From positions 1-44,135 of the IMG/VR virus record IMGVR_UViG_3300034069_000450: a stretch of 44,135 nucleotides of DNA. One strand, written 5' to 3'. The translations under genes and the position numbers were made by a program. Below, one piece after another: positions 5,877-42,817 of the stretch (position 1 is the stretch's first letter; every line of letters begins with the position of its first letter). The stretch comes from a virus. The notes under the pieces were generated by a model that was not told where the DNA came from, did not search any database, and was given only the letters and a program-made list of their open reading frames with translations.

Positions 5877-7991
5877 TCACTGTGTGACCCACTTTCCGAC
5901 GACCACAAACTCGCGCTCGTCGCGATTGCGATCGGGCTTCTTGACGACTTCCAGAGCGCCTTCAGCGATCCATCGTTCAACGATAGTTTTGATCCGGGCC
6001 TTCGCGCGTTTCACCTCATCGGTCTTCGCCGAGAGGTCGATGCGAAGGTCTAGAATGTCGACCAGTTGCTGCCCTACCCAAGCCTTTGCCTGGGAGTCGC
6101 GCCGCCAGTCACCATTCCCTAAAGAGTGCTGAAAGCGCATGAGATGCGCGGTCGTGACGCCCGAAAACGCATCCGGAGGTGTCCAGGAACAGGCGACACC
6201 GACGCTATCGCCGTTCGCCAAATCCTGATTGTTCATGCGATACCAATCGCCGCGCTCGGGCGGCGCGAGATTCGCCTTGTCGTTGTCGACGCGAAAGTAG
6301 AAGAACCGCTCATCGGCGGGCACGTTGAGCTTTGCCGCTTCTTCGTCCGTCATCCGGTTGTAGACCAGCACGGACCGAGCCTTGCCGATGAGAGCGGAGG
6401 CGCCGCGGGCGCTGTCTGCGGTGGCCTCCGCCCCGTTCTGCTTGCGGACGTGGTGGACGAGGTTGATCGCCGCGCCGGTGCGCTCAGCAATGACGTTCCA
6501 CTCGCGGGCCACTAAGTCGATCGCGTTGTTGTCGTTCTCCGATACCGCGTGCGAGCTGATGAAAGGATCGACCACCAGCACGTCGATTTTGCGCTCAATC
6601 ATCTCTTCGATGAGCGCATCCACGATGGGCCGCGCGATCATGGCGCCGTCCGGTCCTTCGGTCGCAATAATGAGGGGCTGATCGCGTCCGCTATCCACGT
6701 AAAGCCGGTCGCCAAGTTCTTTCGGGCTGATCTTGAAGCGTTGCGCCGTCGCGTGGAGGCGCCGCTCGATTTCCTCGACCGGGTCTTCTAGGTTCCACAG
6801 CCAGACGCTCAGCGCGCCTTCCGGCAGCCCTTTATCGTAGAGGTCGCGACCGGTTGCCATAGCCATCGCTTCGCCGATCTTCAGCGACGACTTGCCGACA
6901 CCGCCGGCCGCTACATCGACCGACACGAATTTGCGCAGCAGGTGCTTGCCGTAGAGCCATTGACGCTTTGGTATCGCGCTGGTCGGACGCCACGCGAAAG
7001 GAGTTGCCCGCACCAGCTTATCGACTGGCGCGGCAGGTGCGGCAAACAACGCCGCGACATCGGCCATCCCGTACTCCCTGGCCATGTCGTTGAAGTCGTC
7101 GCCGCCATCGGTCACGAGCCCGGCCATGTCCGGCATGATGACCCGCCCGCCCAGCGTGCGCGCCATCGCTTCGGCTGCTTCCTTGCCGACGTTCCGCTGC
7201 ACCTTGGGATGCGCGACGAGATGCCAGTCGTCGTCTCCCGCCACGATCATCTCGCGCCCGGCCCAACGGTGTGAGGCCCAGCGCGCGACGTGAATCATGT
7301 TGCCGGTGTTGACCGCCATCGCGACCGGGTGACCGGTGGCCTGGTGCAGCGTGGCGGCGGTGCTGTACCCTTCCGCGAAGATGACCGGAGAGGTGCCATC
7401 GTCCTGACCGACAAGGAAGTATCCGCCCTCGTGGGTGGTGCCGGGATAGAAGCGGCGCTCGCCATCCTCCCGGATCGCCTGAAGCGACATCGGCTTGTCG
7501 TTGTGATCGCTGATCGGCACGATGACGCAGGGCGCGTCGCCGAGGCCGAAGCGCTTGCCGGATCCCTGCCGCGTGCCGTGGGCCAGCACGCCCTTGCGCT
7601 GAAGGTAGGGGTGGAGCTCGGAGAGCGGCTTGCACTCGCGCCAGAATGCCAGCGCCTCGGCCGCCGCTTCTTGAAAGCCCCGCAGCCGATCAATGTCGCG
7701 CGCCTCACGGCGCCGTGCGATCTCGGCCCGGTCGATCGTCTCGCTGCTGTTCTGACCGAACCAACGGTGACGAACCTTCTCGTCCCGCCAGTCCATGACC
7801 CAGCCAACCGGACGCTCGTCCGCGTGCAGCAGGTAGCGGCCGGGCCGGCTGCCCTTGTGCCGGGTGTCCTCCATGCGGAAGCTGTGCCAGTGACCATCGG
7901 CGATGATGCTGTCGGGCGCGGACCCGCACACGCCTTTGATGAAGGCGCGGAAGTCCTCTTCGATGTCGCGGATCGGAGCGGTCGCCATCAC
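5877..7991 (-). CDS. Bifunctional DNA primase (Toprim) / RecA-type replicative helicase
   Basis: Toprim motif: VIFAEGYSTAATL...MIVAGDDDW. Walker A: DVAAGGVGKSSL. Walker B: DVLVVDPF. 704 aa. Confidence 0.8.
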   Translation of the reverse strand: MMATAPIRDIEEDFRAFIKGVCGSAPDSIIADGHWHSFRMEDTRHKGSRPGRYLLHADERPVGWVMDWRDEKVRHRWFGQNSSETIDRAEIARRREARDIDRLRGFQEAAAEALAFWRECKPLSELHPYLQRKGVLAHGTRQGSGKRFGLGDAPCVIVPISDHNDKPMSLQAIREDGERRFYPGTTHEGGYFLVGQDDGTSPVIFAEGYSTAATLHQATGHPVAMAVNTGNMIHVARWASHRWAGREMIVAGDDDWHLVAHPKVQRNVGKEAAEAMARTLGGRVIMPDMAGLVTDGGDDFNDMAREYGMADVAALFAAPAAPVDKLVRATPFAWRPTSAIPKRQWLYGKHLLRKFVSVDVAAGGVGKSSLKIGEAMAMATGRDLYDKGLPEGALSVWLWNLEDPVEEIERRLHATAQRFKISPKELGDRLYVDSGRDQPLIIATEGPDGAMIARPIVDALIEEMIERKIDVLVVDPFISSHAVSENDNNAIDLVAREWNVIAERTGAAINLVHHVRKQNGAEATADSARGASALIGKARSVLVYNRMTDEEAAKLNVPADERFFYFRVDNDKANLAPPERGDWYRMNNQDLANGDSVGVACSWTPPDAFSGVTTAHLMRFQHSLGNGDWRRDSQAKAWVGQQLVDILDLRIDLSAKTDEVKRAKARIKTIVERWIAEGALEVVKKPDRNRDEREFVVVGKWVTQ

Positions 7992-12526: not shown

Positions 12527-12711
12527 AGCGCGCTGTTCCCCTGTGCGTGATCGAGGTGCAGCACGCTCGCGACACCGACCGCGACGGAAGCTGGCACGTC
12601 ATCGATAGCGGACGTGATGCCGAATGGCTTGTCTTTCGGTTGGAGGATGTCAGCCGAGGCTACGAAGGGCGCCCCGTGCGCCTTCGTCTCGCTGATGGAG
12701 CGACGGCATGA
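12523..12711 (+). CDS. Hypothetical protein (62 aa)
   Basis: ORF track. ATGA overlap with the previous gene. Confidence 0.45.
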   Translation: MKRAVPLCVIEVQHARDTDRDGSWHVIDSGRDAEWLVFRLEDVSRGYEGRPVRLRLADGATA

Positions 12712-12911
12712 CCCGCTCGTCCGCCAGCATCCGCACGTCCGAGCCCGCGTTCCGGCCGCACACGTCGCAATGGCAGCGCGAGAACATGGGGCGGGTCGAG
12801 CCGATGGCACCCGCGCGCGGCATGTCCGAGATGCGGCAGGGGCTGATCGTCGGCTGGCTGATCGGGTTCGCGATCATCACGGGCATCGTGCTGAAGGGGT
12901 TCGGGCTGTGA
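12708..12911 (+). CDS. Small protein with C-terminal TM helix (67 aa)
   Basis: Hydrophobic stretch: GLIVGWLIGFAIITGIVL. ATGA overlap with the previous gene. Confidence 0.45.
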   Translation: MTRSSASIRTSEPAFRPHTSQWQRENMGRVEPMAPARGMSEMRQGLIVGWLIGFAIITGIVLKGFGL

Positions 12912-13825
12912 ACGCCGTCACGCTGAACATGCTCGGCGACAGCGACGACGCGTTCCGCGCATCGGTGGTCGGTGCATCCGAGGTGCCGGCGCTGTTCGAC
13001 GCCTCGCCCTGGCTGACCCGGTTTGAGCTGTGGCACCGGAAGAACGGTACCATCGCGACGCCGGAGTTCGGCGGTGACGAGCGCATCCAGGCCGGCATCT
13101 TCTTGGAGCCGTCCATCATCCAGTGGGCGTGCGCCAAGTACGGCTACGAGCCGGTCGAGAAGCCGCGCCGCCTCGACAACGGCGCCGGGCTCGGCGGCCA
13201 TCCCGACGCGCTGGTCCGCTGCCCTGAACGAGGAACGGTCGGCATCCTTGAAGTGAAGATGGTTGACTGGCTGGTGTTCAAGAAGTGGGGTGACGAACCG
13301 CCGCTGCACTACCTGCTCCAGGCGCAGACCTATGCGGGGCTCGCTAAGGTCGAGTGGGCGGACATCGTCTACACGGTCGGCGGGAATAGCCTGAACCGGC
13401 ATCAGGAAGCCGCGCGGCCGGCGCTATTCGAGAAGATTGAGGCGCGTGTCGCTGCGTTCTGGACCGACGTTCGCGCCGGCATTGCGCCCGTGCCGGATTA
13501 CGCCCGCGACGGCGCCGCGCTGATCGAGAGCCTTGGCCTGCCGACCGACGAGGTGGCCGACTTGCGCGACAGTCTCGACGCCGAGCAGGAGGCGATGGAC
13601 TTCCTCGCCGGCAAGGCACTGCGCGACCAGGGCGAAGCGCAGATGGACGCCGCCAAGTGCCGGCTGATCGAGCGCATCGGCACGGCCGGCGTCGCGCTGC
13701 TGCCCGGTCATCGGATCGGCGCCAACCGCACGAAAGACACGCCGGATCGTGAGGCGAAGCCCGGCGAGATCATCAAGGGGCGCCGCGGATACCGGCGCTT
13801 CGACGTGAAGGAGATCGCGGCGTGA
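12908..13825 (+). CDS. YqaJ/lambda-Exo-like recombination exonuclease
   Basis: Motifs: GASEVPALFDASPWLTRFELWHRK...HPDALV...GILEVK (PD-(D/E)xK). GTG 12908 lies in a GTGA overlap. The 5' extension in the track overlaps three other genes. Confidence 0.8.
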   Translation: MNAVTLNMLGDSDDAFRASVVGASEVPALFDASPWLTRFELWHRKNGTIATPEFGGDERIQAGIFLEPSIIQWACAKYGYEPVEKPRRLDNGAGLGGHPDALVRCPERGTVGILEVKMVDWLVFKKWGDEPPLHYLLQAQTYAGLAKVEWADIVYTVGGNSLNRHQEAARPALFEKIEARVAAFWTDVRAGIAPVPDYARDGAALIESLGLPTDEVADLRDSLDAEQEAMDFLAGKALRDQGEAQMDAAKCRLIERIGTAGVALLPGHRIGANRTKDTPDREAKPGEIIKGRRGYRRFDVKEIAA

Positions 13826-14403
13826 TCCTGTTTTTCGACACGGAAACCACCGGGTTCTTCAACGATCGCCAGCCGGTCAATCATCCTTCGCAGCCGCATA
13901 TCGTCCAGCTAGCCGCAATGCTGACCGAGGACGACGGCGCTGAGGTCATGTCGTTCTCGGTGATCGTCGACAACGGCGTGTCCATCCCGGTTCAGGCGTC
14001 GAACGTTCACGGCATCACGACCGAGATTGCCGACGCGCGCGGGATAGAGCCCGAGATCGCGATGCACCTGTTCACGCACGCCTATCGGCTCGCCGACACA
14101 GTGGTCGCCCACAATATCAAGTTCGACAAGGGCGTCGTCGAAGCTGAGATATTCCGCCGTCATGGCGAGGTGCGCCGGCTATCAAAGCCGCTGTTCTGCA
14201 CCATGGAAGCGGCAACGCCCATCGTGAACCTGCCGCCCACCGAGCGGATGCTTGCGGCTGGGTTCGACAAGCCGAAGCCGCCGAAGCTCGAAGAGTGCAT
14301 CCGCCACTTCTTCGACGAAGCACTCGACGGCGCGCACGACGCGATGATCGACGTGGACGCCTGCCGCCGCGTCTTCTTCCACCTCAAATCTTTGGAGAAT
14401 TGA
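13822..14403 (+). CDS. DnaQ-like DEDDh 3'-5' exonuclease
   Basis: ExoI is FFDTETTG, ExoII is VVAHNIKFD and ExoIII is HDAMIDVD. Confidence 0.8.
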   Translation: MILFFDTETTGFFNDRQPVNHPSQPHIVQLAAMLTEDDGAEVMSFSVIVDNGVSIPVQASNVHGITTEIADARGIEPEIAMHLFTHAYRLADTVVAHNIKFDKGVVEAEIFRRHGEVRRLSKPLFCTMEAATPIVNLPPTERMLAAGFDKPKPPKLEECIRHFFDEALDGAHDAMIDVDACRRVFFHLKSLEN

Positions 14404-14404
14404 T

Positions 14405-15289
14405 ATGGCAACGCAGCTTGCTACTCGCGACGATCGCGCAACCCCCGTCCAGGTGTTTCGCCAGACGCTTGGCCAAATGACCGGGCAGCTGAAGATGGCC
14501 CTGCCGGCGCACATCAGCGTCGAGAAATTCCAGCGCGTCGCGACCACCGCCGTCCAGACTAGTCCGACGCTGCTGGATCCCAACAAGTGCGACCGAGGCT
14601 CGCTGTTCGGCGCACTAGTGAAAGCGGCGCAAGACGGCTTGCTGCCCGATGGCCGCGAAGGCGCAATCGTGCCCTATCAGGGCAAGGCGCAGTGGCAGCC
14701 GATGGTCGCCGGCATCATGAAGAAGGTGCGTAACAGCGGCGAGGTTGCCAGTTGGGATGTCGCTGCCGTCTACGAAAAGGACGAGTTTGAGCGGTTACTG
14801 GGCGACGACCAGCGCATCTTCCACAAGCCGTTCGAGGATGGCGACCCCGGCCAGGTGATCGGCGCCTACAGCATCGTGACCTTCAAGGATGGTACGAAGA
14901 GCCGCGACTATATGCCGCGCTGGCGGATCGAGAAGGCGCGAGCGCAAGGGCTGGCGAAGAATAGCCTGATGTGGGCGCAGTTTTACGACGAAGGCGCGAT
15001 CAAAACCGTCATCAAGCACCACGGCAAGCGCCTGCCTATGTCAACGGACGTAGAAGCGCTTTTTGAGCGCGACGACACCATGGCGCACGCGCGCTCGGCT
15101 GTCGCGATCATGGCCCACGGTGCGCAGGAGGCCGAACAACCCGCCCCCGTCTCACGCCTTGACGCGCTGGAAGAGCGGATCGGCGCCAATGACGGCACGC
15201 TGGCCGCTGACAACCCGAACGCTGGTGAAGGTCGCGCGGACGAGCAGCACGGCGAAGACAATCTGCTGCCGATGGGTGACGACCAGTGA
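14405..15289 (+). CDS. recT: RecT-family single-strand annealing protein
   Basis: LPAHISVEKFQRVATTAVQTSPTLL...SLFGALVKAAQDGLLPDGREGAIVPY is typical of RecT. It is adjacent to the exonuclease. Confidence 0.85.
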   Translation: MATQLATRDDRATPVQVFRQTLGQMTGQLKMALPAHISVEKFQRVATTAVQTSPTLLDPNKCDRGSLFGALVKAAQDGLLPDGREGAIVPYQGKAQWQPMVAGIMKKVRNSGEVASWDVAAVYEKDEFERLLGDDQRIFHKPFEDGDPGQVIGAYSIVTFKDGTKSRDYMPRWRIEKARAQGLAKNSLMWAQFYDEGAIKTVIKHHGKRLPMSTDVEALFERDDTMAHARSAVAIMAHGAQEAEQPAPVSRLDALEERIGANDGTLAADNPNAGEGRADEQHGEDNLLPMGDDQ

Positions 15290-15426
15290 TGGCCGTCTAT
15301 CATCATCCCTGCGGCAAGCGGGAGGTGTGCGGGCCGGGCCAGGCTAAGCAGCCCTGCGCCGCGTGCGACCACCTGTTCGCTCGCGTCGAGGCCTCGTTCC
15401 TCACCCGCGTGGGAGCAGGGCGGTGA
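15289..15426 (+). CDS. Small Cys-rich (zinc-ribbon-like) protein (45 aa)
   Basis: MAVYHHPCGKREVCG...CAAC. It overlaps both neighbours (TGATG, GTGA). Confidence 0.4.
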   Translation: MAVYHHPCGKREVCGPGQAKQPCAACDHLFARVEASFLTRVGAGR

Positions 15427-15731
15427 GTGGGCGGGGCACCATGCGCATTGTCGTGTCGGGCTCGTTCACAGCGACCCACTCGTGCGTCGAGGGGCATCCG
15501 CACGATCACAAGTGGCACGTGACGGCGTGGTTCGTTTCGGCACCGCGGGCTGATGCTCGCCTGTTCCGCGAAAGCCTCGACACCATGCTTGCGCGCTGGG
15601 AAGGGCGGGTGTTGCCGGCCGGCCGCGACTGGAACGAAGACATCGCGGAAGAGATTTCGGGGCTGGTCAATTGCGTCGAAGTCAGGGTGTGGCGCGAGGC
15701 GGATCGCCTTGGCGCGCACTGGATCGCGTGA
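15423..15731 (+). CDS. Short PTPS/QueD-like protein (6-carboxytetrahydropterin synthase family)
   Basis: FTATHSCVEGHPHDHKWHVTAWF resembles the His-triad/Cys region of QueD. It is shorter than canonical QueD. ATG 15441 is an alternative start. Confidence 0.4.
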   Translation: MSGRGTMRIVVSGSFTATHSCVEGHPHDHKWHVTAWFVSAPRADARLFRESLDTMLARWEGRVLPAGRDWNEDIAEEISGLVNCVEVRVWREADRLGAHWIA

Positions 15732-15734
15732 TGG

Positions 15735-16481
15735 ATGGACCGCTTCTTCGTCGGGGTCCATCAGCCGTGCGACGCGCACCGGGTGGAAGCCGCCTTCATA
15801 TCGATCCATCGCATTGCGAACCGGCGCAGTCCGTTCGCGGTCGGCGCGTGGATCATGGACAGCGGGGCCTTTCGGACGATCGAGCTGCACGCCGGCTATC
15901 CAGAGCCGCCCGAGGTCTACGCGGCTCAGATCAAGCGGTGGTCGACCAATGGCAATCTGTTGGCAGCGGTAAGCCAGGACTACATGTGCGAGCCGTTCAT
16001 GCTGGCGATCACTGGCTTAACGATCGCGGATCACCAGCGGCTGACGATCGAGCGCTACGACGCGCTGATGGCTTGCGACCTGGGTGGCGTCTACCTGATG
16101 CCGGTCCTGCAAGGCTACTCGCCAGCAGACTACGTGCGACATCTGGAGATGTACGGCGACCGGCTGGCGCATGGCGCGTGGGTCGGTGTTGGCAGTGTTT
16201 GCAAGCGCAACGGCGACCCCGCGGCGATCGAGGAGGTCCTCCTCGCGATCAAGCGCGTGCGGCCCGACCTTCGGCTTCACGGCTTCGGCATCAAGACGAC
16301 CGCCCTGCGCAGTGCGCTCGTCCGCGCGCTGCTGTGGACCGCCGACAGCATGGCGTGGAGCTTCGCAGCTCGGAAAGCCGGCAGGAACGGCAATTCAATC
16401 GAGGAGGCGCTGATGTTCGCCGACCGGATCAACAGCATGGAAATACCGGACACGCTGCTGTCGCTGATGGTGGCCGCATGA
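15735..16481 (+). CDS. dpdA: DpdA-like DNA transglycosylase (TGT superfamily, 7-deazaguanine insertion into DNA)
   Basis: N-terminal FFVGVHQP, a TGT-type catalytic motif WIMDSGAFRT, and C-terminal LHGFGIK. No tRNA-TGT zinc motif is seen. It is adjacent to the QueD-like gene. Confidence 0.6.
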   Translation: MDRFFVGVHQPCDAHRVEAAFISIHRIANRRSPFAVGAWIMDSGAFRTIELHAGYPEPPEVYAAQIKRWSTNGNLLAAVSQDYMCEPFMLAITGLTIADHQRLTIERYDALMACDLGGVYLMPVLQGYSPADYVRHLEMYGDRLAHGAWVGVGSVCKRNGDPAAIEEVLLAIKRVRPDLRLHGFGIKTTALRSALVRALLWTADSMAWSFAARKAGRNGNSIEEALMFADRINSMEIPDTLLSLMVAA

Positions 16482-16520
16482 CCGGTTTTCCCGCCCGCGC
16501 CCGCACCCAGGAGACCACCG

Positions 16521-16832
16521 ATGTCGAGTGAGAACCCTGCGATCGGCGGGCTTGCTGATCGCTGCCTACGCTTTGTCGAGGAGCAGTCGTGCGGCGAATG
16601 GGGCGAGGCAATCGAGAATGCCGACGCCGCTAATCTGCTCACCTTCGTCCAAGCCGAGATCGCAGCCGAGCGCGAGCGGTGCGCGAAGGTGGCCCATGCT
16701 GCGATCCAAGCCGAAATGGAGAAGCTGAACGATTCGAGGTCGAAGTCAATGGCGGCGATCAAATCAGGGACGCTGCTGTCCGCATCTTTTGCAGTTTCCG
16801 CCGCCATCCGGGAGAACGCCCATGTCGAGTGA
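16521..16832 (+). CDS. Hypothetical protein (103 aa)
   Basis: ORF track. It shares the GGAGA..ATGTCGAGTGAG start cassette with the next gene. Confidence 0.5.
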   Translation: MSSENPAIGGLADRCLRFVEEQSCGEWGEAIENADAANLLTFVQAEIAAERERCAKVAHAAIQAEMEKLNDSRSKSMAAIKSGTLLSASFAVSAAIRENAHVE

Positions 16833-17361
16833 GGTGGCGGCCAAGATGAAGCCGCAATACCCCGATTATCTGGACGATCCGGACGGCCTAGACCGCTTCC
16901 GCCAATCTGTGCGGGTCAACAGCGGTCATGACATGGCGTTGGTCAACTACAACTCCCTCGGACGTTTGATCGACACGATTGACCGGCTCACCCGCCAGCA
17001 AGCCGAAGCCCGCGCCACGTCGGGGGCGGGGGACAGAGAACGCCTCACTGACAAGGTGCGCGATCTTATCGCCGAAATGCAGATGGGTGATGCATCTGAA
17101 TACGAGACGACGGACGTGATCGTCGCCCTTCTCTCCGCCTCCCCCACCGAAGTGCCAGGATTGGAAGGGGTGGGGTCAGTGACGATCAGCCGGGAGCGAT
17201 ACGATCGTCTGCGCTTTGCGGCGGGAGAGATCAATGCCGATCCCGGTCTAGCAGCGGTCGCCGGTGAAAGCCGTTCTGCACTCATGACCGCGATGGCAAC
17301 GGAGCGTCGAGCGTTCGCCGCACCCACCCGCCTCGCGCTCAATGAGCAGGGGGAAGGGTGA
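16822..17361 (+). CDS. Hypothetical protein (179 aa)
   Basis: Starts at ATG 16822 (MSSEVAAKMK), the same first four codons as the gene at 16521. Confidence 0.5.
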   Translation: MSSEVAAKMKPQYPDYLDDPDGLDRFRQSVRVNSGHDMALVNYNSLGRLIDTIDRLTRQQAEARATSGAGDRERLTDKVRDLIAEMQMGDASEYETTDVIVALLSASPTEVPGLEGVGSVTISRERYDRLRFAAGEINADPGLAAVAGESRSALMTAMATERRAFAAPTRLALNEQGEG

Positions 17362-18176
17362 TGGCGTATGCTGATCGCCTCGCCCGCCGAGACCAGCGCG
17401 TTTCGCAGAGGACTCGCGTTCTGGCTTGGGTCGATGGTGTCAATAGCGCCGTCATGACCAAGCTGGCGCTTGATGAGGACTCCGACGTTATCCCGGTTCA
17501 CTGTGACCTAGGCGATAGCGTACACGAGGACAGTCACCGGTTCATCAACGATCTAGAGATATGGTACGGCAAGCCGATCATCCGCATCCGCAGCGAAGAA
17601 TACGCGACAATCGATGAGGTGTTCGAGAAGCGTCGTTATCTGTCTGGTATGAACGGAGCGCCATGCACGGGCGCCATGAAGATAGTGCCTCGCATGAACT
17701 TTCAATTGCCAAGCGATACTCACCTGTGGGGATATGCCGCCGATAAGCTAGACGCCAAGCGCTTTACTCGGATGCAGGCCGACTACCCGTTACTGCTCCA
17801 GCGCGCGCCGTTGGTCGAACTCGGCATGACCAAGCGCGACACGCATGCTTACCTCGCGGACCATGGCATCCGCCGGCCTCATGTCTACGATGTCGGCATG
17901 CCAAACGGCAACTGCATTGGCTGCGTCAAGTCGTCCAGCCCGAACTACTGGGCTCTAATCAGGCAAGAGTTTCCCAAAGTATTTGAGCGCCGCAATGCGC
18001 AAGCGCGTAGATTTGGTGCGCGCCTCGTCATCGTTGGTCGCGAGAAGGGCGAGGACGGCAAGGTCCGCAACATCCGCGCTTTTCCAGACGAAATACCGGC
18101 TGATCAATCAACCATCGTTCGCGGTGCCGACTTTGGTGGTTGTGGCTTCCATTGTCCCACGGAGCAATCCTTATGA
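17358..18176 (+). CDS. PAPS-reductase/PP-loop superfamily protein with degenerate P-loop
   Basis: Family-like layout: WVDGVNSAV where SGGxDS is expected, then NCIGC and a C-terminal GGCGFHC (compare the ECGLH-type motif). Confidence 0.5.
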   Translation: MMAYADRLARRDQRVSQRTRVLAWVDGVNSAVMTKLALDEDSDVIPVHCDLGDSVHEDSHRFINDLEIWYGKPIIRIRSEEYATIDEVFEKRRYLSGMNGAPCTGAMKIVPRMNFQLPSDTHLWGYAADKLDAKRFTRMQADYPLLLQRAPLVELGMTKRDTHAYLADHGIRRPHVYDVGMPNGNCIGCVKSSSPNYWALIRQEFPKVFERRNAQARRFGARLVIVGREKGEDGKVRNIRAFPDEIPADQSTIVRGADFGGCGFHCPTEQSL

Positions 18177-18733
18177 CCGACCCCACCCAGGCCGAAGTGC
18201 CGGCGGGCATGAAGGCGTATGGCCCCGCGCATCCGGACTATCCGAACGCGCCAAAGGACTGGAATGGTGGGCCGGTGTTGCTGCGCAACGGGGCCACGTC
18301 GCACAATGCCCAACGGTGGTCGGTCGGATATCCGGCTGACCTGTGCAATCACCCGACCGGCACCGACATCATCGCCTATACACCTTCCACGTCCGTACAA
18401 GGTGCCGGGGACGCCACCCCGCCCGCACCGACCAGCGTCGCGGATGAGGCGACCACGAAGCTGATTGCGCGGCTGGGCGTGGAGCATTGCTACCTCGCAC
18501 CGTCCGATGTCGCAGAAGCCCGACGCTTGCTCGCCTTCGCCCCGCGCCCCGCTGGGGAGGGGGAGAAAAACTCACGGGCGACGCTTGCTGTCATCCTCGG
18601 GCTGACTGAGCAGAAGGTCGGCACCAAGGCGGACTTCCGCACGGCGCTTGACGTGATCGGCAGCTTCGCTCGCCGCGAGTTGGGGGTGCCAGAACCCCGC
18701 GCCGCCCTCGCTACGGAAGGCACCCCCTCATGA
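18173..18733 (+). CDS. Hypothetical protein (186 aa)
   Basis: ATGA overlap with the upstream stop. Confidence 0.5.
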   Translation: MTDPTQAEVPAGMKAYGPAHPDYPNAPKDWNGGPVLLRNGATSHNAQRWSVGYPADLCNHPTGTDIIAYTPSTSVQGAGDATPPAPTSVADEATTKLIARLGVEHCYLAPSDVAEARRLLAFAPRPAGEGEKNSRATLAVILGLTEQKVGTKADFRTALDVIGSFARRELGVPEPRAALATEGTPS

Positions 18734-19017
18734 CGAGCGAAGCAGAGCGCGTCGAGGAGGTGGTGAAGGGGCTGACGAAAGCGCAGCGGGAGGCGGTGCT
18801 AAAGTGTCGCGATGAGTGGCTGAATGCCGCAGAAATCGGTGCTTCTGGGGCGGTGCTGACTGCGCTCTGTTGGAGGTGGCCAGATGGTCCGATTGCGCCG
18901 CCTGTGTGTCTGCTTTCCCGCGATTATAAGGACTCACCGTTGCGGTACATCTATCGCCTTACCGCTGATGGCCTAGCCGTCCGCGCCCACCTGCTTGCGA
19001 AGGAGGGGCGGCCGTGA
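18730..19017 (+). CDS. Hypothetical winged-helix-like protein (95 aa)
   Basis: YIYRLTADGLAVRAHL. ATGA overlap with the previous gene. Confidence 0.45.
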   Translation: MTSEAERVEEVVKGLTKAQREAVLKCRDEWLNAAEIGASGAVLTALCWRWPDGPIAPPVCLLSRDYKDSPLRYIYRLTADGLAVRAHLLAKEGRP

Positions 19018-19199
19018 TCTGCTTCCGTGACCGAACCTACTGCTCACGCACCGAGCACGCGCCGGATTGCGAACGCCAGTGGACGCCCGAGCTGCAAGCC
19101 GAGGCGGAACGTTGGTGGGGCGGACCTGACGCGCCTGTGTGCTTCGGCCCCTGCTGCGATGGCACTGGCGACCGCTTCGACGATCGGGTGCGCCCATGA
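19014..19199 (+). CDS. Small Cys-rich protein (61 aa)
   Basis: Six Cys residues, including CFGPCC. Overlapping start. Confidence 0.45.
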   Translation: MICFRDRTYCSRTEHAPDCERQWTPELQAEAERWWGGPDAPVCFGPCCDGTGDRFDDRVRP

Positions 19200-19633
19200 G
19201 CCCGCAGGACGAGCGGGAGGCGATTGCGCGGCTGGCCTACAGCTGGTCGCCATCGATCCACGAGGCGAAGACTGTCGACTGCGAATCAGGGGGCTTCGTG
19301 GAGGCATCTTGGGAAGAGGTCTCCGATAAAGTTCGCGGCTGGTTCTATGACCGCGCCGACGTCATCCTAGCCCTCCGCCAACCGGGGGCGGAGTACCGGC
19401 GAGGCGTGGAGGTGGAGATCGTAGCGATCCGCGAATACCTGATTGCCTGCGCTGACGCGGTGGATGTTCAGCGGGGTCGATACAGCGGCAACGTCGCGGC
19501 TATGCGGGACCTGCGAGCCGAAGCAAAGGCTTATCGGAACGCTGCCCGTATGATCGACCAAGGGGATCACACCGCGTACCGGGCCACCGCCATACGCATC
19601 CTACCCGAAAGCACGAAGGGAGAGGGACGGTGA
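19196..19633 (+). CDS. Hypothetical protein (145 aa)
   Basis: ATGA overlap at 19196. Confidence 0.5.
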   Translation: MSPQDEREAIARLAYSWSPSIHEAKTVDCESGGFVEASWEEVSDKVRGWFYDRADVILALRQPGAEYRRGVEVEIVAIREYLIACADAVDVQRGRYSGNVAAMRDLRAEAKAYRNAARMIDQGDHTAYRATAIRILPESTKGEGR

Positions 19634-19812
19634 CGGCGCGCGCTCGCTTCAGCCAGGCGGACGTGACGCGAGCATTCCGGGCGGCGAAGACGGCCGGCTT
19701 CTCTCACGTGCGCGTCGGGATTGACGTGCAGGGCAATATCGTAGTCGATGCGAGTGATGTGACGGTCATCCCCGATCGCCGCAACCCGCTCGACAGGCTT
19801 TTGGCATCGTGA
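19630..19812 (+). CDS. Small protein upstream of integrase (60 aa)
   Basis: ORF track. Overlapping start and stop. It could be a recombination directionality factor, but no motif supports that. Confidence 0.45.
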   Translation: MTARARFSQADVTRAFRAAKTAGFSHVRVGIDVQGNIVVDASDVTVIPDRRNPLDRLLAS

Positions 19813-20876
19813 AGACGCGCTACAAGAACGTCACCGTCAATCCGGATCGGCACGGCAAGCTGCGGGCACGCTTCCGCAAGGTCGGCACGACGCCGGTCTA
19901 CATGAAGGCGTTGCCCGACCAGCCGGGCTTCGACGCGGAATACCAGACGCTCTTGTCCTCGCCCCGCCAGATCGATCGCGCCATTCCCGGCAGCATCGGC
20001 GATCTGGTGACGCGCTACTATCGCAGCGGCGATTTCGCGGCGAAGGGATCAGCCGACACGCGAGCCCGGCGTCGCTACCTGATCGAGAGCTTCCGTACCG
20101 ACTTCGCCAACGACATGGTCGTGGACTTCGGATTTGAGCATATCGAGGCCATCCTGATAGCTCGTACGAAGAAGCGACGGTTGGACAGCGGGCGGGAGGT
20201 AGGCGGAGAGGTCGCCGCCAGAAATCTGCGCAAGGAACTGCGTCGCCTATTCGCCTACGCCAAGAAGCTGAAGTGGATCGCCGGTAACCCCGTCGATGAC
20301 GCGGAGAAGATCGGCAAGGCCAAGCTGGCGGGCTACTATCCGTGGGCCGAGGCGGACATCGCGCAGTACCAAGCCAAGCACGCGCTCGGCACCCGTGCCC
20401 GGCTTGCGCTTGAGATCATCCTGTGGACCGGCCAGCGCCGTGGCGACACAAGGCTGTTCGGCCCCCAGCACATCGTTCGCGGCAAGATCAATTTCCAAGC
20501 GGCGAAGAACGGTGCCGACCTCTGGCTACCGATCGCGCCCGACCTCCGCCGTGCCATCGCCGCAATGCCGAGTGTCGGCCTGCGTAGCTTCCTCGTCACA
20601 CAGGCGGGCAACGTGTTCAGCAAGGACGGCTTCGGCAACAAATTCCGCGAGTGGTGCGACGAGGCTGGCTTACCGCAATGTGCTGCTCACGGCCTGCGTA
20701 AGGCCATTGCCCGACGTATGGCGCTAAGCTCGGCGACGCAGCGCGGCATCAAAGCGGTCGGCGGCTGGAAGGGCGACAGCGAGGTTACGCTTTATACCGA
20801 ATCAGCCGAGCAAGAGGCGCTGGCAGAGACGGCACTGGGCCTGGCGATCGACCGATTCTCAACCGAGAATGGCTAA
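19809..20876 (+). CDS. int: Tyrosine recombinase / phage integrase
   Basis: Catalytic signature: WTGQRRGD (Arg), HGLRKA (H-x-x-R), GGWKGDSEVTLYT (Tyr). Confidence 0.9.
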   Translation: MKTRYKNVTVNPDRHGKLRARFRKVGTTPVYMKALPDQPGFDAEYQTLLSSPRQIDRAIPGSIGDLVTRYYRSGDFAAKGSADTRARRRYLIESFRTDFANDMVVDFGFEHIEAILIARTKKRRLDSGREVGGEVAARNLRKELRRLFAYAKKLKWIAGNPVDDAEKIGKAKLAGYYPWAEADIAQYQAKHALGTRARLALEIILWTGQRRGDTRLFGPQHIVRGKINFQAAKNGADLWLPIAPDLRRAIAAMPSVGLRSFLVTQAGNVFSKDGFGNKFREWCDEAGLPQCAAHGLRKAIARRMALSSATQRGIKAVGGWKGDSEVTLYTESAEQEALAETALGLAIDRFSTENG

Positions 20877-21001: not shown

Positions 21002-21042
21002 ACGCGCGTTTGATGCGTTTCGCCCCTCGTCGCCCGAGGGAT

Positions 21043-21946: not shown

Positions 21947-22169
21947 CCCCAACGGTTGGCGGCCGGAAGGCGAGGCGATTCAAGATTTAACGGTAAACGG
22001 CTTACCATACAGGGTTCACCATCGTGGGTTCGATCTAACTAGGGTGAGACTTATCCGTAAGGTCCGCGAGGGAGGGGGTAATGGTGTGCCATTACGTGTC
22101 GGCGGTGACGCATGGACGCGGGTACTACGCGCTCTCCCCGCCCCGCCCGCGCAGGATGAGGGGAAGTGA
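21939..22169 (+). CDS. Hypothetical protein (76 aa)
   Basis: ORF track. Confidence 0.45.
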   Translation: MTDPNGWRPEGEAIQDLTVNGLPYRVHHRGFDLTRVRLIRKVREGGGNGVPLRVGGDAWTRVLRALPAPPAQDEGK

Positions 22170-22813
22170 GTCAGAACGTCTCCACCGCAGTGATGCAGCG
22201 TCGCGTCGAAGCGCACGACTCGCTCGACGACTTCCCGACGCCGCCATGGGCGACGCGCGCCTTGTGCGAGTTCCTGGAGGACGAGGACCTGATTTCTGCC
22301 TACGCGACCTGCCGCGAGCCGGCCGCGAATCGAGGCCATATGGTCGCGGCGTTGCGGGAGTATTTCAGCGCAGTCGAGGCGTCCGACGTGCACGATTACG
22401 GCGTAGGCTTCCGAGTGGACGACTACCTATTTGGGCCGCTGCCCTCGTTGGTCGATTGGACGATCACCAACCCGCCATTCCGGCTAGCCGAGCAGTTCAT
22501 TGAGCGCGCTTTGGCGACAAGCCGGGTAGGGGCGGCAATGATCGTCCGCGCAGCCTTCCTGGAAGGCGTAGGCCGATTCGAACGACTGTTCTCGGAACAC
22601 CAGCCCGCGCACGTTCTCCAATTCAGCGAACGCGTCGTGATGCACAAGGGCAAGCTGTCGCCGACCGGTTCCACTGCGACGGCCTATTGCTGGATCGTGT
22701 GGCGTCCGTCGTCGATCGGAAAGATGGCGCGACCCTCGGCCAAGCTTGGATGGATTGCACCATGTCGCAAGCGACTGGAGCGTGCCTCGGATTATCAGGA
22801 CCCCCGCCCGTGA
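22166..22813 (+). CDS. Orphan DNA methyltransferase (amino-MTase, NPPF motif)
   Basis: DDFPTPPW near the N-terminus and motif IV TNPPF. No adjacent restriction endonuclease gene. Confidence 0.7.
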   Translation: MSQNVSTAVMQRRVEAHDSLDDFPTPPWATRALCEFLEDEDLISAYATCREPAANRGHMVAALREYFSAVEASDVHDYGVGFRVDDYLFGPLPSLVDWTITNPPFRLAEQFIERALATSRVGAAMIVRAAFLEGVGRFERLFSEHQPAHVLQFSERVVMHKGKLSPTGSTATAYCWIVWRPSSIGKMARPSAKLGWIAPCRKRLERASDYQDPRP

Positions 22814-23157: not shown

Positions 23158-23386
23158 CGCAAGCGAGCGGGAGTTCCCGTACGAGCCCAATCAGATGGAT
23201 CGCCGATCGCAGGTGGTCGAGGAAATGGCAGCGTTCCTCGCATGGGATCGCGGGGGACAGACGCACCCACTGTGCAGCTACGATCTCGACCGTGCCGAAG
23301 AGATGGTGACGGGTGAGGTCAATCTTCGCGCCGAGAACGAGCGCTTGAAGAAGCGCGTCGCCGAACTGGAGGGCGTTGTTCAATGA
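23144..23386 (+). CDS. Hypothetical protein (80 aa, C-terminal coiled coil)
   Basis: ORF track. It shares its 5' end (ATGACC..GACGCAAGCGAGCGGG) with the next gene. Confidence 0.5.
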   Translation: MTHPDASEREFPYEPNQMDRRSQVVEEMAAFLAWDRGGQTHPLCSYDLDRAEEMVTGEVNLRAENERLKKRVAELEGVVQ

Positions 23387-23889
23387 CCGACGCAAGCGAG
23401 CGGGTGAGGGAGGTGGCGGCGGGGCTCGCTCCCGTCATCTTCCTCGACATTGACGGGCCGATGATCCCGGCGACCATGTTCCTGATTGACCGGATGTGCT
23501 CGTTCAACCGCAACTTCCCGGCGACGACGATCGCGGTCGTTAACGACCTGTGCAAACGGACGGGTGCGAAGATCGTGTTCAACACAACGCACAACCGACC
23601 GTTCAATGGCGTGCCTGACATTGACGTGGCGCTGGTAGAGCAGGGGCTAAACGCCGCCCATCTGCACGACGACAAGCATACGTTGTACCCGAGCATCCCG
23701 CGCGACGTGGCGATCAAGGAATGGCTCGCCCGGCACGATGAGGTCGAAGCCTGGGTGGCTATTGATGACGTGCTGTGCGCCGACCCCGAACACATGATCC
23801 TCGTCGACCCGGATGCTGGCGTGCACGTCGGGCATCTGAACGACGCCGTTCGCATCCTTGGAGGTAAGCCGTGCCTGATCCTGATGTGA
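23383..23889 (+). CDS. HAD-superfamily phosphatase-like protein
   Basis: Motif I is IFLDIDGP. Also NTTH and a late acidic motif WVAIDD. Confidence 0.6.
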   Translation: MTDASERVREVAAGLAPVIFLDIDGPMIPATMFLIDRMCSFNRNFPATTIAVVNDLCKRTGAKIVFNTTHNRPFNGVPDIDVALVEQGLNAAHLHDDKHTLYPSIPRDVAIKEWLARHDEVEAWVAIDDVLCADPEHMILVDPDAGVHVGHLNDAVRILGGKPCLILM

Positions 23890-29885: not shown

Positions 29886-30017
29886 ATGACCCCAAGCATG
29901 TATACCCTGCCGTTCGCGACCGCGATATATTGGGCTGTCAAAGAGGCGTGGGGCTTGTACAAGGCGCGCTCAGCGTCCGTAGCTGAGAGCCAATCCGGAG
30001 CCGATGAGACCTCCTAG
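29886..30017 (+). CDS. Possible small ORF (43 aa) following the moron
   Basis: ATG lies 4 nt after the moron stop. It overlaps the 3' end of the convergent gene, which weakens the call. Confidence 0.2.
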   Translation: MTPSMYTLPFATAIYWAVKEAWGLYKARSASVAESQSGADETS

Positions 30018-31781
30018 CGCGTCTCGCTGCCGCACGGCCTCACCAGCACGCAGCAACACATCGGGACGGTCAATCAACGCAGCCTGTACCGCGCGCCGTC
30101 CGATCGGCGTGAAGGGCGCAGCGAGGGCCAACCCCGCCAAGACGTTCGTCGTTCCATCCTGACCGGATGCGTAGCCACCACCAGCGCCTAGGACGCCGCC
30201 GCCGGCCGCATAGAGGGCTAGACGGCCCGCGGTGCCGCTATCTGGCACGGACGATGGCAGAACGGTCTTTGCTTGGTCGGACAGGTCCTGAAGCCGAGCC
30301 TTGCCTGCGGCGAACGCACGCTTACGCGTCGACCGATCCGCCTCGCGCACCCCTTGGGCAAGGTTCTCAGGTGTAAACACGCCGTCTGTCTTCGACTTAG
30401 CCGCGGCCCGCTCGATCGCAGTCAGGTTTGCGTAAGCGGAATCCGCTGCTCGAAACATGGATGCGTTCTCGGGCGCCTGACGGCTCGCCAGTCCCATGAA
30501 CTCGTCGCGTACCGTCTCAAGCGTGTCAGCGATGTCGTGGTTGCGTGGCTCCGGGCTACGCCGGTACGCGTAGATCTTGTCGTTGAGGCCTCGCTTGATG
30601 GCTTGCAGCTGCGAGCCGTTAATGGGGTCGCTGCCGAACGGCCCGAGCGCGCGCTTCATAACGCTCGTCACCTCGTCGGCTTGATCGGTCGTCAGGGTGC
30701 CGATCTGAGCGCTGATATTCTGCAAGCCGGTGGCGAAATCACCGTCAGGCGTGAGGGAGATGCCGGACAGCCCTTTGTCGTAGGCCTCGTCAAGTTTGGA
30801 CTGAGCCCAGTCGATAAGCGATCGCCCAGGCGGTGTGTTGGGAGGCACCTCCTCTGCAATAGGCTCCAGAGCCTTGTTCACCGCAGCACGGTTTAAGTCC
30901 TCTACGCCTGCGCGCCGAGCAGACTGGATGGCGTCACCAATGATGGGGAGACCTGCGGCACGGTCCTCAACCGATTTAATCGCACCGCCGATCATGCCGT
31001 TTTGGCCGAAGATTTGGCCAGGCGTCATCGAAACGCCAGCACGGCTGAGGCTGCGGACAGCAGGCGCTACCACGGGCGACAAGACATTGCCGACGCCGCG
31101 CACGACGCCGCGGCCGATTGCTCCACCCAGGGCGTTCGTCACGCCGCCCTCAAGCGCGCCTTTCACCCGGTCGTTGTTGCTATTGCCAGCACCGTACGCC
31201 GCGCCGACGAGAGCATCAGCGGTGAGCGCACCTTTCAGCGCGTTCGGGACACCAGTGGCAAGCTGTGCGCCTCGGGCCGTCGCCGCTAGTCCAGTGCCCA
31301 GCGCGCCGCCAAGCACAAGACCGCCAACCTGTCCTGCGGTTGTTGAAAACGGATGGTCGCCGAACGCTGCCTGCTTGGCCCCATCAGCCTGTTGAAGATT
31401 GAGGTCATACTGCTCGCCGAAGGTGCGGCCCTCAGGGGCCGACCAGTAACTATCCCGCCCTGGCAGCACGGTCGTAATGCCCGCCGACAGCTCGTCTAAT
31501 AGCCCACCAGTCACGAAATCGCCCGCGCCGACCAATCCTGCTTGAAAATCGGATCCTAGCGGTTCGCGGGGTGTCTCCGCTGGCGCAGAGGAAGCCTTAG
31601 GCGCAGTCATTACCGGATCGTGTACCGTCGTGTCCGCCGGAGCAGGGGCACCCTTCAAATCGAGATCACCCTGCGCCACTCGCTCGTTGATGAAACGCTC
31701 AAGCTCGGCTGCCTTGTCGTCGCTCGGCGCTTCAACCTCGTACATACCGCCGTTCGCGGCCTTGATCTGATACTTCGGCAT
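29970..31781 (-). CDS. Internal virion / DNA-ejection protein (603 aa)
   Basis: Large Gly/Ala-rich protein with hydrophobic Gly-zipper-like stretches (GGLVLGGALGTGLAA; GGGVLGAGGGY). It sits with the other ejection genes. Confidence 0.55.
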   Translation of the reverse strand: MPKYQIKAANGGMYEVEAPSDDKAAELERFINERVAQGDLDLKGAPAPADTTVHDPVMTAPKASSAPAETPREPLGSDFQAGLVGAGDFVTGGLLDELSAGITTVLPGRDSYWSAPEGRTFGEQYDLNLQQADGAKQAAFGDHPFSTTAGQVGGLVLGGALGTGLAATARGAQLATGVPNALKGALTADALVGAAYGAGNSNNDRVKGALEGGVTNALGGAIGRGVVRGVGNVLSPVVAPAVRSLSRAGVSMTPGQIFGQNGMIGGAIKSVEDRAAGLPIIGDAIQSARRAGVEDLNRAAVNKALEPIAEEVPPNTPPGRSLIDWAQSKLDEAYDKGLSGISLTPDGDFATGLQNISAQIGTLTTDQADEVTSVMKRALGPFGSDPINGSQLQAIKRGLNDKIYAYRRSPEPRNHDIADTLETVRDEFMGLASRQAPENASMFRAADSAYANLTAIERAAAKSKTDGVFTPENLAQGVREADRSTRKRAFAAGKARLQDLSDQAKTVLPSSVPDSGTAGRLALYAAGGGVLGAGGGYASGQDGTTNVLAGLALAAPFTPIGRRAVQAALIDRPDVLLRAGEAVRQRDALGGLIGSGLALSYGR

Positions 31782-33070
31782 TACGGCAGCCTTCGGATGG
31801 TGGAGGAAACTCGGCTGCCGCCACCGCTCATTTCCTCGTACCCCTGTCGGGTCGTACGAATGAGGTCACGCAGACCCGCAATGGCCTCGCGCCGGCCATC
31901 CTCGCTCTGCGCCCTGCTCGGCAGCCCCGCCTGCGCCAGGCGACTCTCGTAATCGCTCATAGCGCCTTCGCCTGGCGTGCGGGTCAGCTTCCGGATTAGC
32001 GGCGAGAGGCCCGCGAGTGCGGCATCTGCGGCATTGGCGCTATCGCTGAGGCTGCCCCCAAAATGACCAATCCAAGCACCCTTCACATCGGTCTTGTTCA
32101 GTGCCGCTTCGGCGCGGTTCAGCTGTCCTTCTATCGCCTTGAGGTCAGTCAGCTTACCGGTGACATTCTGCTTCTGTCGGCCGGTAAGCTGGAAGCGTTC
32201 CTGCGTCATATCCTGCCCTCGCATTGTGACAGCCTGACCGGCTCGCGCGGTGGCCGCACCGATGTCCTGCCCACGCCGAGCAGTCGACGCGCTGATGTCC
32301 TGCCCACGACGCGCGGTGGATGCCGACACATCTTGACCGCGCACGGTGACCGCTTGACCGGCCGCCGCCCGATCATCTGCCAGCACTTTGTCGGCGCCGA
32401 CGCCGATCGCGACCATGCCTTTCAGGTTTTCGTCATGCGGATCAAACCCGGCGAGTTCGTCTGTCGTCCACCCTGCCTCGCGTAGGAGAGGCGCATGCTC
32501 GTCGATAAAGCCCGCTCTATCTGCCAACGGCAGCTTGCTCGCGGCGAGCGACACCGCAGCAGCCACCGCAGTTTTCTGACCGAACGCCTCGCGCCCGTTC
32601 TTGTCCAACTCGCCCATGTGCTTGGTGAGATTGGCCGCCATCTCAGGATCAAGCGCCGCGACATCTGCGATGGAGATCGCCGGCGCAGCGGGGGCTGATC
32701 GGCTACCGCTGACCATCACGTCGCCGGTTACCGGGTCGGTGGGCGATCCAACGTCCGGTCCGAGTGCGGTGACTGCGCCAGTTTGACCGGGCGCATGCTG
32801 CCGAAGATAACCTGCGTACGCCTGCCGGCCGAGCGCCGCGCGACGTGTCGCCTCGTTGTCCGCGTTGACCTTGGACAGCACGCCGAACGTCTGCGGATCG
32901 ACTGCGGCAAGAGGACGCAGCGCATCGGCGGTCGGATTCGCCGCATAAGTCGCCAGCGCATCGTCGCGCACTCGCTGTTGTTTAAGCTGACGCCCCTGCT
33001 GATAGGCTTCCAAGACCCCGCGCGACGGGTCACCGGCTTGCTGAAGGATGCCCCAATTAATCTGCGTCAT
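31781..33070 (-). CDS. Internal virion / ejection protein (429 aa) with RGQD tandem repeats
   Basis: Position, composition, and the in-frame 11-aa repeats RGQD[VI]SASTAR. Confidence 0.55.
   Translation of the reverse strand: MTQINWGILQQAGDPSRGVLEAYQQGRQLKQQRVRDDALATYAANPTADALRPLAAVDPQTFGVLSKVNADNEATRRAALGRQAYAGYLRQHAPGQTGAVTALGPDVGSPTDPVTGDVMVSGSRSAPAAPAISIADVAALDPEMAANLTKHMGELDKNGREAFGQKTAVAAAVSLAASKLPLADRAGFIDEHAPLLREAGWTTDELAGFDPHDENLKGMVAIGVGADKVLADDRAAAGQAVTVRGQDVSASTARRGQDISASTARRGQDIGAATARAGQAVTMRGQDMTQERFQLTGRQKQNVTGKLTDLKAIEGQLNRAEAALNKTDVKGAWIGHFGGSLSDSANAADAALAGLSPLIRKLTRTPGEGAMSDYESRLAQAGLPSRAQSEDGRREAIAGLRDLIRTTRQGYEEMSGGGSRVSSTIRRLP
32206..32350 (-). repeat. In-frame tandem repeat, 33-nt period (about 3 full and 2 partial units)
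   Basis: gatgtcctgcccacg recurs at 32261 and 32294, with degenerate units at 32228 and 32327. Protein: VRGQDVSASTARRGQDISASTARRGQDIGAATARAGQAVTMRGQDM. Confidence 0.75.
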
Positions 33071-33192
33071 GCTTCACGCTCCAGCTCAGCAATCCGCGCT
33101 TTGATTTCACGCACGTTCTCAGCAAGCCCGGTTCGGCCTTCGCGCGCCGCTAGCTTGGCACGCAGGGCAGCTAGTTCCTCGTCGCGGGTCAT
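33067..33192 (-). CDS. Small coiled-coil protein (41 aa)
   Basis: MTRDEELAALRAKLAARREGRTGLAENVREIKARIAELEREA. ATGA overlaps on both sides. Confidence 0.45.
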   Translation of the reverse strand: MTRDEELAALRAKLAAREGRTGLAENVREIKARIAELEREA

Positions 33193-39423: not shown

Positions 39424-39483
39424 ACGATCCTCCTGAAACTCGGTGCCCCGCCTTTTCATGGGCGCGGGGCCTTCCCCCGGGCG

Positions 39484-40383: not shown

Positions 40384-40397
40384 TGGTCAGCCCTCCC

Positions 40398-40973: not shown

Positions 40974-40985
40974 GGTGCCTGTACC

Positions 40986-42241: not shown

Positions 42242-42284
42242 CGGACCCCTCGCATGATCGTGGCGAGGTATGACCTGTCCGGTC

Positions 42285-42816: not shown

Positions 42817-42817
42817 G

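Follow-up and report, generated by a model that had tools for sequence, protein, structure and literature searches.

A mini-QueD gene is paired with a DpdA-like gene

The viral DNA analysed here, a stretch of 44,135 nucleotides (IMG/VR record IMGVR_UViG_3300034069_000450; hereafter the window), encodes in its early region a short QueD-like protein, which we term mini-QueD, and directly downstream of it a 248-residue protein of the DpdA family. The two genes form a recurrent pair, as a DpdA-like gene, encoding a protein of about 217-280 residues, adjoins the mini-QueD gene in the window and in each of 11 look-ups that started from a family member. We consider it moderately probable that DpdA swaps a host-derived 7-deazaguanine into the phage DNA, that mini-QueD supplies or determines the base to be inserted, and that the phage is thereby protected from restriction; in this model, to which that grading applies as a whole, the conserved functional unit would consist of the two genes alone. 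A first-pass annotation of the window, made from its sequence, had instead assigned five consecutive genes to a partial 7-deazaguanine DNA-modification module. All five open reading frames (ORFs) are present on the + strand (Table 1), the motifs quoted for them (FFVGVHQP, DSGAF, GFGIK and THSCVEGHPHDH) occur in their translations, and the view of the cassette as partial and host-dependent is upheld, but the last three genes are better separated from the first two, as set out below.

The 248-residue protein belongs to the DpdA-only group of phage enzymes

The 248-residue protein matched the Pfam family PF23859 with 144.4 bits (cut-off 27; E = 4.6e-42; profile positions 4-224 of 291) and phrog_1279, 'queuine tRNA-ribosyltransferase', with E = 1e-66, which places it within the tRNA-guanine transglycosylase (TGT)/DpdA family, as had been supposed from its motifs. 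It is 58% identical to gp25 of Sinorhizobium phage phiLM21 and 41% identical to gp20 of Mycobacterium phage Orion (E = 3e-40); its relationship to the DpdA1 enzymes of CAjan and Rosebush, which have been validated by experiment, is remote (hidden Markov model (HMM) E about 1e-4 to 1e-5). The CxCxxC...H motif of the structural zinc site found in TGTs and bacterial DpdA is absent from the window protein, as the first-pass annotation had noted, its only cysteines being C12, C85, C114 and C156. This zinc site is a defining feature of TGT and bacterial DpdA. D42, together with F46 of the same DSGAF motif, and D82 never vary in an alignment of 19 homologues, and D204 has a conservation of at least 90%. 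In DpdA from Salmonella, Asp95 (with Phe99) acts as the general acid/base, Asp130 in base recognition and Asp256 as the nucleophile (PMC10164549). Mapped by the order of the motifs rather than by superposition of structures, D42/F46, D82 and D204 of the window protein would correspond to D95/F99, D130 and D256, respectively.

In their 2019 survey, Hutinet et al. described a 'third group' of phages, including phiLM21, Orion and Salmonella phage 7-11, that encode DpdA without genes for the synthesis of 7-cyano-7-deazaguanine (preQ0); this was the largest phage group described at that time, and its members may depend on preQ0 from the host (PMC6884629). On sequence similarity, the window DpdA is a new member of this known, catalogued DpdA-only group. 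The likeness extends beyond membership of the same DpdA clade, as the window phage also lacks preQ0 biosynthesis genes, would depend on host precursors, and carries the gene in the early region of a temperate phage near an orphan DNA methyltransferase gene. The earlier statement that this is not a known type of cassette therefore holds in part. DpdA-only phages, including phiLM21, were catalogued in 2019 (PMC6884629, Supplement), and a partial, host-dependent DpdA phage is of a known kind; the recurrent pairing of mini-QueD with a DpdA-like protein is new, and the mini-QueD partner appears undescribed, as no description of the pair was found in the searchable literature.

In phiLM21 the arrangement differs, as the DpdA gene is followed by a gene for a YhhQ-like transporter, whereas the window phage has mini-QueD directly upstream of DpdA instead. 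The phiLM21 product, gp26 (positions 6528-7055 of locus L001), is annotated as 'hypothetical protein', matched the YhhQ/Vut_1 family PF02592 with E = 5e-14, and was entered as a YhhQ-type transporter in the supplement of Hutinet 2019 (PMC6884629). It presumably transports the precursors preQ0 or 7-aminomethyl-7-deazaguanine (preQ1) and appears to be an alternative accessory to mini-QueD. The protein encoded upstream of the phiLM21 DpdA, gp24 (131 residues), was not detected as a relative of mini-QueD. The orphan methyltransferase of the window, a member of phrog_799, is 59% identical to phiLM21 gp27 (L001 7234-7881); the gp27 gene directly follows the DpdA and YhhQ-like genes, and its window counterpart lies about 5.7 kb away, past the integrase gene.

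Membership of this clade also bears on whether phage DNA is modified at all. The DpdA-like protein might be inactive, act on tRNA or use some other substrate, in which case its pairing with mini-QueD would serve a function unconnected with DNA. Orion, whose DpdA is of the same clade, has DNA without 7-deazaguanine, and the clade is devoid of the structural zinc site; the Orion result was, however, expected by the authors, as the host of that phage has no preQ0 pathway (PMC6884629), and the trio of catalytic aspartates is invariant or nearly so. Moreover, the gene is retained in many temperate phages beside DNA methyltransferase genes, and in phiLM21 also beside the YhhQ-like transporter gene. 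DNA from another phage of the DpdA-only group, Salmonella phage 7-11, contained a small, unexplained amount of dADG, the nucleoside 2'-deoxy-7-amido-7-deazaguanosine (PMC6884629). We regard a function that leaves phage DNA unmodified as distinctly unlikely and infer that the target is DNA rather than tRNA.

Mini-QueD resembles a truncated member of the QueD/PTPS superfamily

The link between mini-QueD and QueD/PTPS came only through a structure model and a profile search that covered 1.84 billion protein representatives, as direct sequence searches with mini-QueD gave no match in Pfam, PHROGs, NCBIfam, PADLOC, the Protein Data Bank (PDB) or the phage collection. An AlphaFold2 (AF2) model built on an alignment of close relatives adopts a T-fold with a predicted local distance difference test (pLDDT) score of 94.6. 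A Foldseek search with this model returned QueD or PTPS proteins as its top 13 matches (TMq up to 0.77), and the best matches in the PDB were QueD from Escherichia coli (3qna and 4ntk; template modelling (TM) score 0.74), archaeal and human PTPS, and then QueF-L. The profile search (E ≤ 0.001) yielded a family of 199 clusters whose members are mostly 95-125 residues long, and the Pfam PTPS model was matched (E ≤ 0.01) by 65 of 115 sampled members. The family profile matched PTPS/QueD sequences of the PDB with E values of 1.7e-7 to 1.5e-5, and its comparison with E. coli QueD by hhalign gave a probability of 95%; residues 3-99 of the QueD sequence used in that comparison agree with the PDB-aligned region. 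Taken together, the predicted fold and the profile matches place mini-QueD in the QueD/PTPS superfamily of T-fold proteins, as a truncated member, and the first-pass description of the protein as QueD-like is borne out at the level of fold and superfamily.

With residues numbered from the ATG at 15441 (the 96-residue form), H13, H21 and H23 of mini-QueD align by hhalign with H16, H31 and H33, the zinc ligands of QueD, and E66 aligns with Glu86. Across 115 family members H13 and H23 do not vary and the conservation of H21 is at least 90%, and we propose these three histidines as zinc ligands. What mini-QueD shares with E. coli QueD (4NTK, 3QNA) is the T-fold, the triad of zinc-binding histidines and the conserved Glu, but it is about 25 residues shorter. 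The loop that bears the essential Cys27 of QueD is deleted, and with it the catalytic Cys of CxxxHGH, and the window protein has E54-G55 in place of the dyad Asp70-His71, which the family consensus retains as DH. Ten close relatives keep the H, C, E, H-x-H and W-H of the segment THSCVEGHPHDH that had been flagged as an unusually compact motif. In this close subfamily C15 is near-invariant and E17 invariant; Cys15 lies two residues past the first His, a position other than that of the catalytic Cys of QueD. One member of the mini-QueD family scored 22.8 bits against the NCBIfam QueD equivalog TIGR03367, for which the cut-off is 89.25 bits. As the Cys loop and the Asp-His dyad are lost and the score falls far below the cut-off, mini-QueD is probably not a canonical QueD, that is, a synthase of 6-carboxytetrahydropterin (CPH4).

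These features weigh on the possibility that mini-QueD is nonetheless a working CPH4 synthase that boosts the preQ0 of the host, with DpdA inserting preQ0. Such a role would agree with its superfamily membership and the retained His triad and Glu, with the annotation of the family member in Caulobacter phage DMCA as 6-carboxytetrahydropterin synthase, and with the insertion of preQ0 by every DpdA tested to date (PMC10516641). Besides the missing catalytic residues and the low equivalog score, however, the window protein matches no Pfam or NCBIfam model, and a QueD acting alone, without FolE, QueE and QueC, would bring no obvious gain in flux. We therefore consider a working CPH4 synthase unlikely.

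A closer parallel may be DpdL, a QueD paralogue of Cellulophaga phage phiST that lacks the catalytic Cys and was proposed to decarboxylate 7-carboxy-7-deazaguanine (CDG; Hutinet et al. 2023, PMC10516641). Were mini-QueD an enzyme of this type, it would convert CDG from the host to 7-deazaguanine, which DpdA would insert to give 2'-deoxy-7-deazaguanosine (dDG). DpdL and mini-QueD are both short QueD-superfamily proteins (115 and about 100 residues, respectively) encoded near a DpdA, neither has the Cys of CxxxHGH, and they have motifs in common at aligned positions where QueD's Asp-His dyad is lost and around the conserved Glu, with RWGR and E-S-IAEEL in phiST DpdL against RWEGR and E-D-IAEEI in the window protein. 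Their similarity is, however, not significant (HMM 9.6 bits; hhalign probability below 3% for the comparison with phiST CGPG_00067), and the DpdL signature LxxxHRHxF is absent from mini-QueD, which instead has HxH after a very short loop. The genetic settings differ as well: DpdL accompanies FolE, QueD, QueE and DpdA3 (without QueC), whereas mini-QueD accompanies only a DpdA-like protein of type A, B or C (see below), and the window phage has none of FolE, QueD or QueE. In addition, the activity of DpdL has been proposed and never demonstrated (PMC10516641). We regard a DpdL-type activity of mini-QueD as doubtful.

The mini-QueD gene occurs with three types of DpdA-like partner

In the loci in which the pair was found, the two genes mostly overlap or directly abut, and one short ORF intervenes in L074 and L076. 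The partners fall into three divergent types. Type A, the window's own, corresponds to PF23859/phrog_1279. Type B matched phrog_887, 'queuine tRNA-ribosyltransferase', with E values of 4e-32 to 1e-40 and has no Pfam model; its AF2 model is a triosephosphate isomerase (TIM) barrel (pLDDT 93.6) for which BFVD holds matches to numerous TGT/DpdA models of phages, with E values down to 9e-8, and its sequences show the motifs D-N-G-A-F, P-D and (A/C)-D-S-T, ordered as in DpdA. By these matches the type B family is probably a DpdA-like clade that has gone unannotated. A search for this family gave 687 matches, proteins of about 235 residues from Sphingomonas and Caulobacter phages. Type C corresponds to phrog_15826, for which no function is annotated; its members, of about 220-234 residues, are related to type B and carry the motifs DNGAW, PD and DSFDG. 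The L058 protein of this type departs from them in its first Asp motif, which is ENGCY. By these assignments, two DpdA-like families for which Pfam has no model, those of phrog_887 and phrog_15826, are probably DNA transglycosylases.

The subclade of mini-QueD to which the window protein belongs (at least 50% identity) occurs with all three partner types. The pair is also found in culturable material: Caulobacter phage DMCA (PQ480021; L079 3986-5007; genes DMCA_035c and DMCA_034c), which is among the 11 look-ups and is grown on Caulobacter vibrioides CB15, carries mini-QueD with a type B partner that is annotated as hypothetical, and a related prophage carries the pair in Sphingomonas parapaucimobilis NBRC 15100 (NZ_BBPI01000069), a type-collection strain. 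The presence of the pair in a cultured phage and in a prophage of a collection strain makes the question of its function directly testable.

The phage lacks the preQ0 pathway and would draw on its host

Among 63 further ORFs of the window, a Pfam scan found no family corresponding to FolE, QueE, QueC, QueF, amidotransferase or YhhQ, and tblastn of the window with the pathway enzymes of Rosebush, CAjan and phiST gave nothing at E < 0.1, in agreement with the first-pass statement that FolE, QueE, QueC and amidotransferase genes are missing. Without genes for FolE, QueE, QueC or YhhQ, the phage must rely on the queuosine pathway of its host for the base or for a precursor of it. Close homologues of the window proteins were found in Sphingomonas, Sphingobium, Rhizorhabdus and Sphingopyxis, which points to a probable host within the Sphingomonadaceae. 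A sphingomonad, Zymomonas mobilis, is the source of the model tRNA-guanine transglycosylase. The complete cassettes for preQ0 or archaeosine (G+) of CAjan, 9g and Rosebush, in which FolE, QueD, QueE and QueC accompany DpdA1, would be comparable to the window system in that DpdA exchanges guanine as a protection against restriction; they differ in that four of their five enzymes are missing from the window and in that the window DpdA is remote from DpdA1.

In the model that we favour, a temperate phage would express both genes as part of its long early operon, and after replication DpdA would exchange guanine in the phage DNA for a 7-deazaguanine base. The exchange would follow the double displacement of TGT enzymes, with the Asp of D-x-x-x-F as general acid/base, a second Asp in base recognition and a third as the nucleophile. 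The base or its precursor would be drawn from the host queuosine pathway, and mini-QueD would act, as an enzyme or as a carrier, on a small molecule of the host, a pterin or 7-deazaguanine intermediate such as CDG or preQ0. By this means it would supply or alter what DpdA inserts, a role that resembles the one proposed for DpdL, and the DNA so modified would be protected from restriction. With a DpdA-like neighbour in every sampled context, across three divergent transglycosylase clades, mini-QueD offers a concrete lead on what, if anything, the DpdA-only phages insert, and may be a missing tailoring or supply enzyme.

Several points count against this model. Activity has so far been shown for no member of the clade of the window DpdA, and the DNA of Orion, with its 41% identical DpdA, is unmodified. 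The subfamily of the window protein replaces the Asp-His dyad that most of the mini-QueD family keeps, and for this reason its function may not be that of other family members, or may be confined to binding. The tie of types B and C to DpdA rests on PHROG and fold matches, as a profile-profile comparison of type A with type B was not significant and a fold search of the PDB with the type B model gave generic TIM barrels only; a search of PDB sequences with the type A DpdA profile likewise found nothing. The model further assumes that the host has a queuosine pathway. Finally, mini-QueD is present in only 6 of 54 type A DpdA loci of IMG/VR, so that DpdA does not need the mini partner. This one-way association, together with the swapping of partners, is in keeping with mini-QueD being a DpdA-dependent accessory enzyme or carrier that acts on the free base, and is less readily reconciled with a fixed structural subunit.

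A bolder extension of the two-gene model, which we think improbable, is that mini-QueD and DpdA form a self-sufficient two-enzyme route that leads from a common metabolite of the host to a base outside the eight known DNA 7-deazaguanines and on into DNA. The starting metabolite may be 7,8-dihydroneopterin triphosphate (H2NTP) or CPH4, both intermediates of folate/queuosine synthesis, or CDG or preQ0. What results could be a deazaguanine with a new substituent at position 7, or even a base derived from a pterin. If true, such a route would also account for what is inserted into DNA by at least a part of the 'singleton' DpdA-like enzymes in the three divergent clades (A, B and C).

The three downstream genes appear to be independent cargo

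The first-pass annotation had allowed, as an alternative to supply by the host, for the two proteins of no assigned function and the 272-residue protein of the phosphoadenosine phosphosulfate (PAPS) reductase superfamily to provide non-canonical steps; these would take the place of QueE and QueC, and all five genes would form a single DNA-modification module. The five genes are indeed co-directional and packed, with stops and starts that overlap or nearly abut, and the 272-residue protein belongs to the same ATP-pyrophosphatase superfamily as QueC. However, the whole early operon (12614-20876) is equally packed, and we rejected dense packing as evidence for a module on this ground. No relative of the 272-residue protein was found in 56 DpdA loci, and no DpdA was found near its 75-79% identical homologues (5 loci), which occur in other sphingomonad phages beside a repressor or integrase gene. 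The 103- and 179-residue proteins, in turn, are missing even from the closest prophage (Sphingomonas parapaucimobilis, L060), in which DpdA is 89% identical. A five-gene module is thus very unlikely, and the 103-residue, 179-residue and PptA-like proteins are best treated as independent cargo of the early operon.

The 272-residue protein matched 'PptA' of the PDB (21fy_C) with E = 9.5e-31, phrog_424 with E = 3e-31 and SspD of PADLOC with E = 3e-9, while its score against PF01507 (21.6 bits) fell just short of the 22.5-bit cut-off. It was also considered as a divergent QueC, a candidate that we rejected as its nearest relatives are PptA and SspD, PF06508 was not matched, and there is no linkage to DpdA. 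Its PP-loop is degenerate, reading VDGVNS instead of SGGxDS, and the same form is conserved in 120 close homologues; PptA carries SCGAPS at this place. The same homologues conserve six cysteines (C48, C102, C185, C188, C261 and C265), which suggests an iron-sulfur protein whose nucleotide chemistry is uncertain. Apart from its matches to PptA and SspD, the protein is 31-34% identical to proteins of Vibrio phages 236O40-1 and 168E36-1 that are annotated as PAPS reductases. It differs from PptA/SspD/DndC systems in its degenerate PP-loop and in standing without DndA/D/E or SspA/B/C partners, as neither Pfam nor PADLOC gave a match to the Dnd/Ssp partners (cysteine desulfurase, DndD/SspC ATPase, DndE/SspB) in the window or beside the homologues. 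A PAPS reductase of a Vibrio phage has been reported to aid evasion of host Dnd, as relayed second-hand in PMC13551039. No paper on the role of PptA (PDB 21fy) was found in the searchable literature. From its relatives and their neighbourhoods, the 272-residue protein is likely to be a separate DNA-modification or anti-defence gene product that is independent of DpdA.

The 103-residue protein gave no match in Pfam, PHROGs, NCBIfam, PADLOC or the PDB and is absent from all fetched DpdA and PptA-like loci. The 179/190-residue protein gave matches at chance level only and is absent from all fetched related loci.

Genome setting of the pair

The window, a whole metagenomic contig, represents a temperate tailed phage, with Pfam matches to terminase, capsid, lysozyme, integrase, RecT, exonuclease and an AAA_25 protein of helicase type. 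The five ORFs all lie within a single long, dense early operon on the + strand (approximately 12614-20876), which additionally carries the exonuclease and RecT genes and has the integrase gene as its final gene. Promoter and terminator scans of the region were at chance level except for a terminator-like hairpin 3' of the integrase gene, the sole convincing one in the region. The GTG start of mini-QueD at 15423 has a GGGAG ribosome-binding site 7 nt upstream, with the ATG at 15441 as the alternative start, and the TGA stop (15729-15731) sits 3 nt ahead of the DpdA ATG. The GC content at third codon positions is 0.76 in the mini-QueD ORF and 0.84 in the DpdA ORF, and codon-position GC favours coding. 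Between RecT and mini-QueD lies a Cys-rich ORF with a C-x5-C ... C-x2-C pattern, possibly a zinc ribbon, whose stop overlaps the GTG of mini-QueD.

Table 1. Positions of the features discussed, in the window unless a locus is named
Feature	Position	Strand	Length	Remarks
Cys-rich ORF	15286-15426	+	46 aa	possible zinc ribbon
Mini QueD/PTPS-like protein, predicted T-fold	15423 (GTG) or 15441 (ATG)-15731	+	102 aa or 96 aa	
Predicted DpdA-family DNA guanine transglycosylase, type A (phiLM21/Orion clade)	15735-16481	+	248 aa	PF23859, phrog_1279
Protein of no assigned function	16521-16832	+	103 aa	neighbour, not demonstrable as part of the cassette
Protein of no assigned function	16789/16822-17361	+	179/190 aa	neighbour, not demonstrable as part of the cassette
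Stand-alone PAPS-reductase-superfamily protein (PptA/SspD/DndC-like)	17358-18176	+	272 aa	
Integrase	19809-20876	+		final gene of the early operon
Terminator-like hairpin	21024-21040			3' of the integrase gene
Orphan DNA methyltransferase	22166-22813	+		phrog_799
ORF with DIDGP motif	23383-23889	+	168 aa	
Type B partner (example)	L059 5273-5983			
Type B partner (example)	L061 5402-6112			
Type B partner (example)	L079 4282-5007			
Type C partner (example)	L058 4758-5462			adjoins a mini-QueD gene
Type C partner (example)	L072 2351-3004			adjoins a mini-QueD gene

Two further observations concern genes outside the early operon. One ORF of the batch that contained the 168-residue ORF matched HAD_SAK_2 with E = 2.4e-15, and the DIDGP motif suggests that the match belongs to that ORF. 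The 'Swiss army knife' proteins of RNA repair have HAD_SAK_2 as their HAD phosphatase domain. In the structural/late region, one ORF within 29970-44007 matched Cpn10/GroES with E = 3.9e-14.

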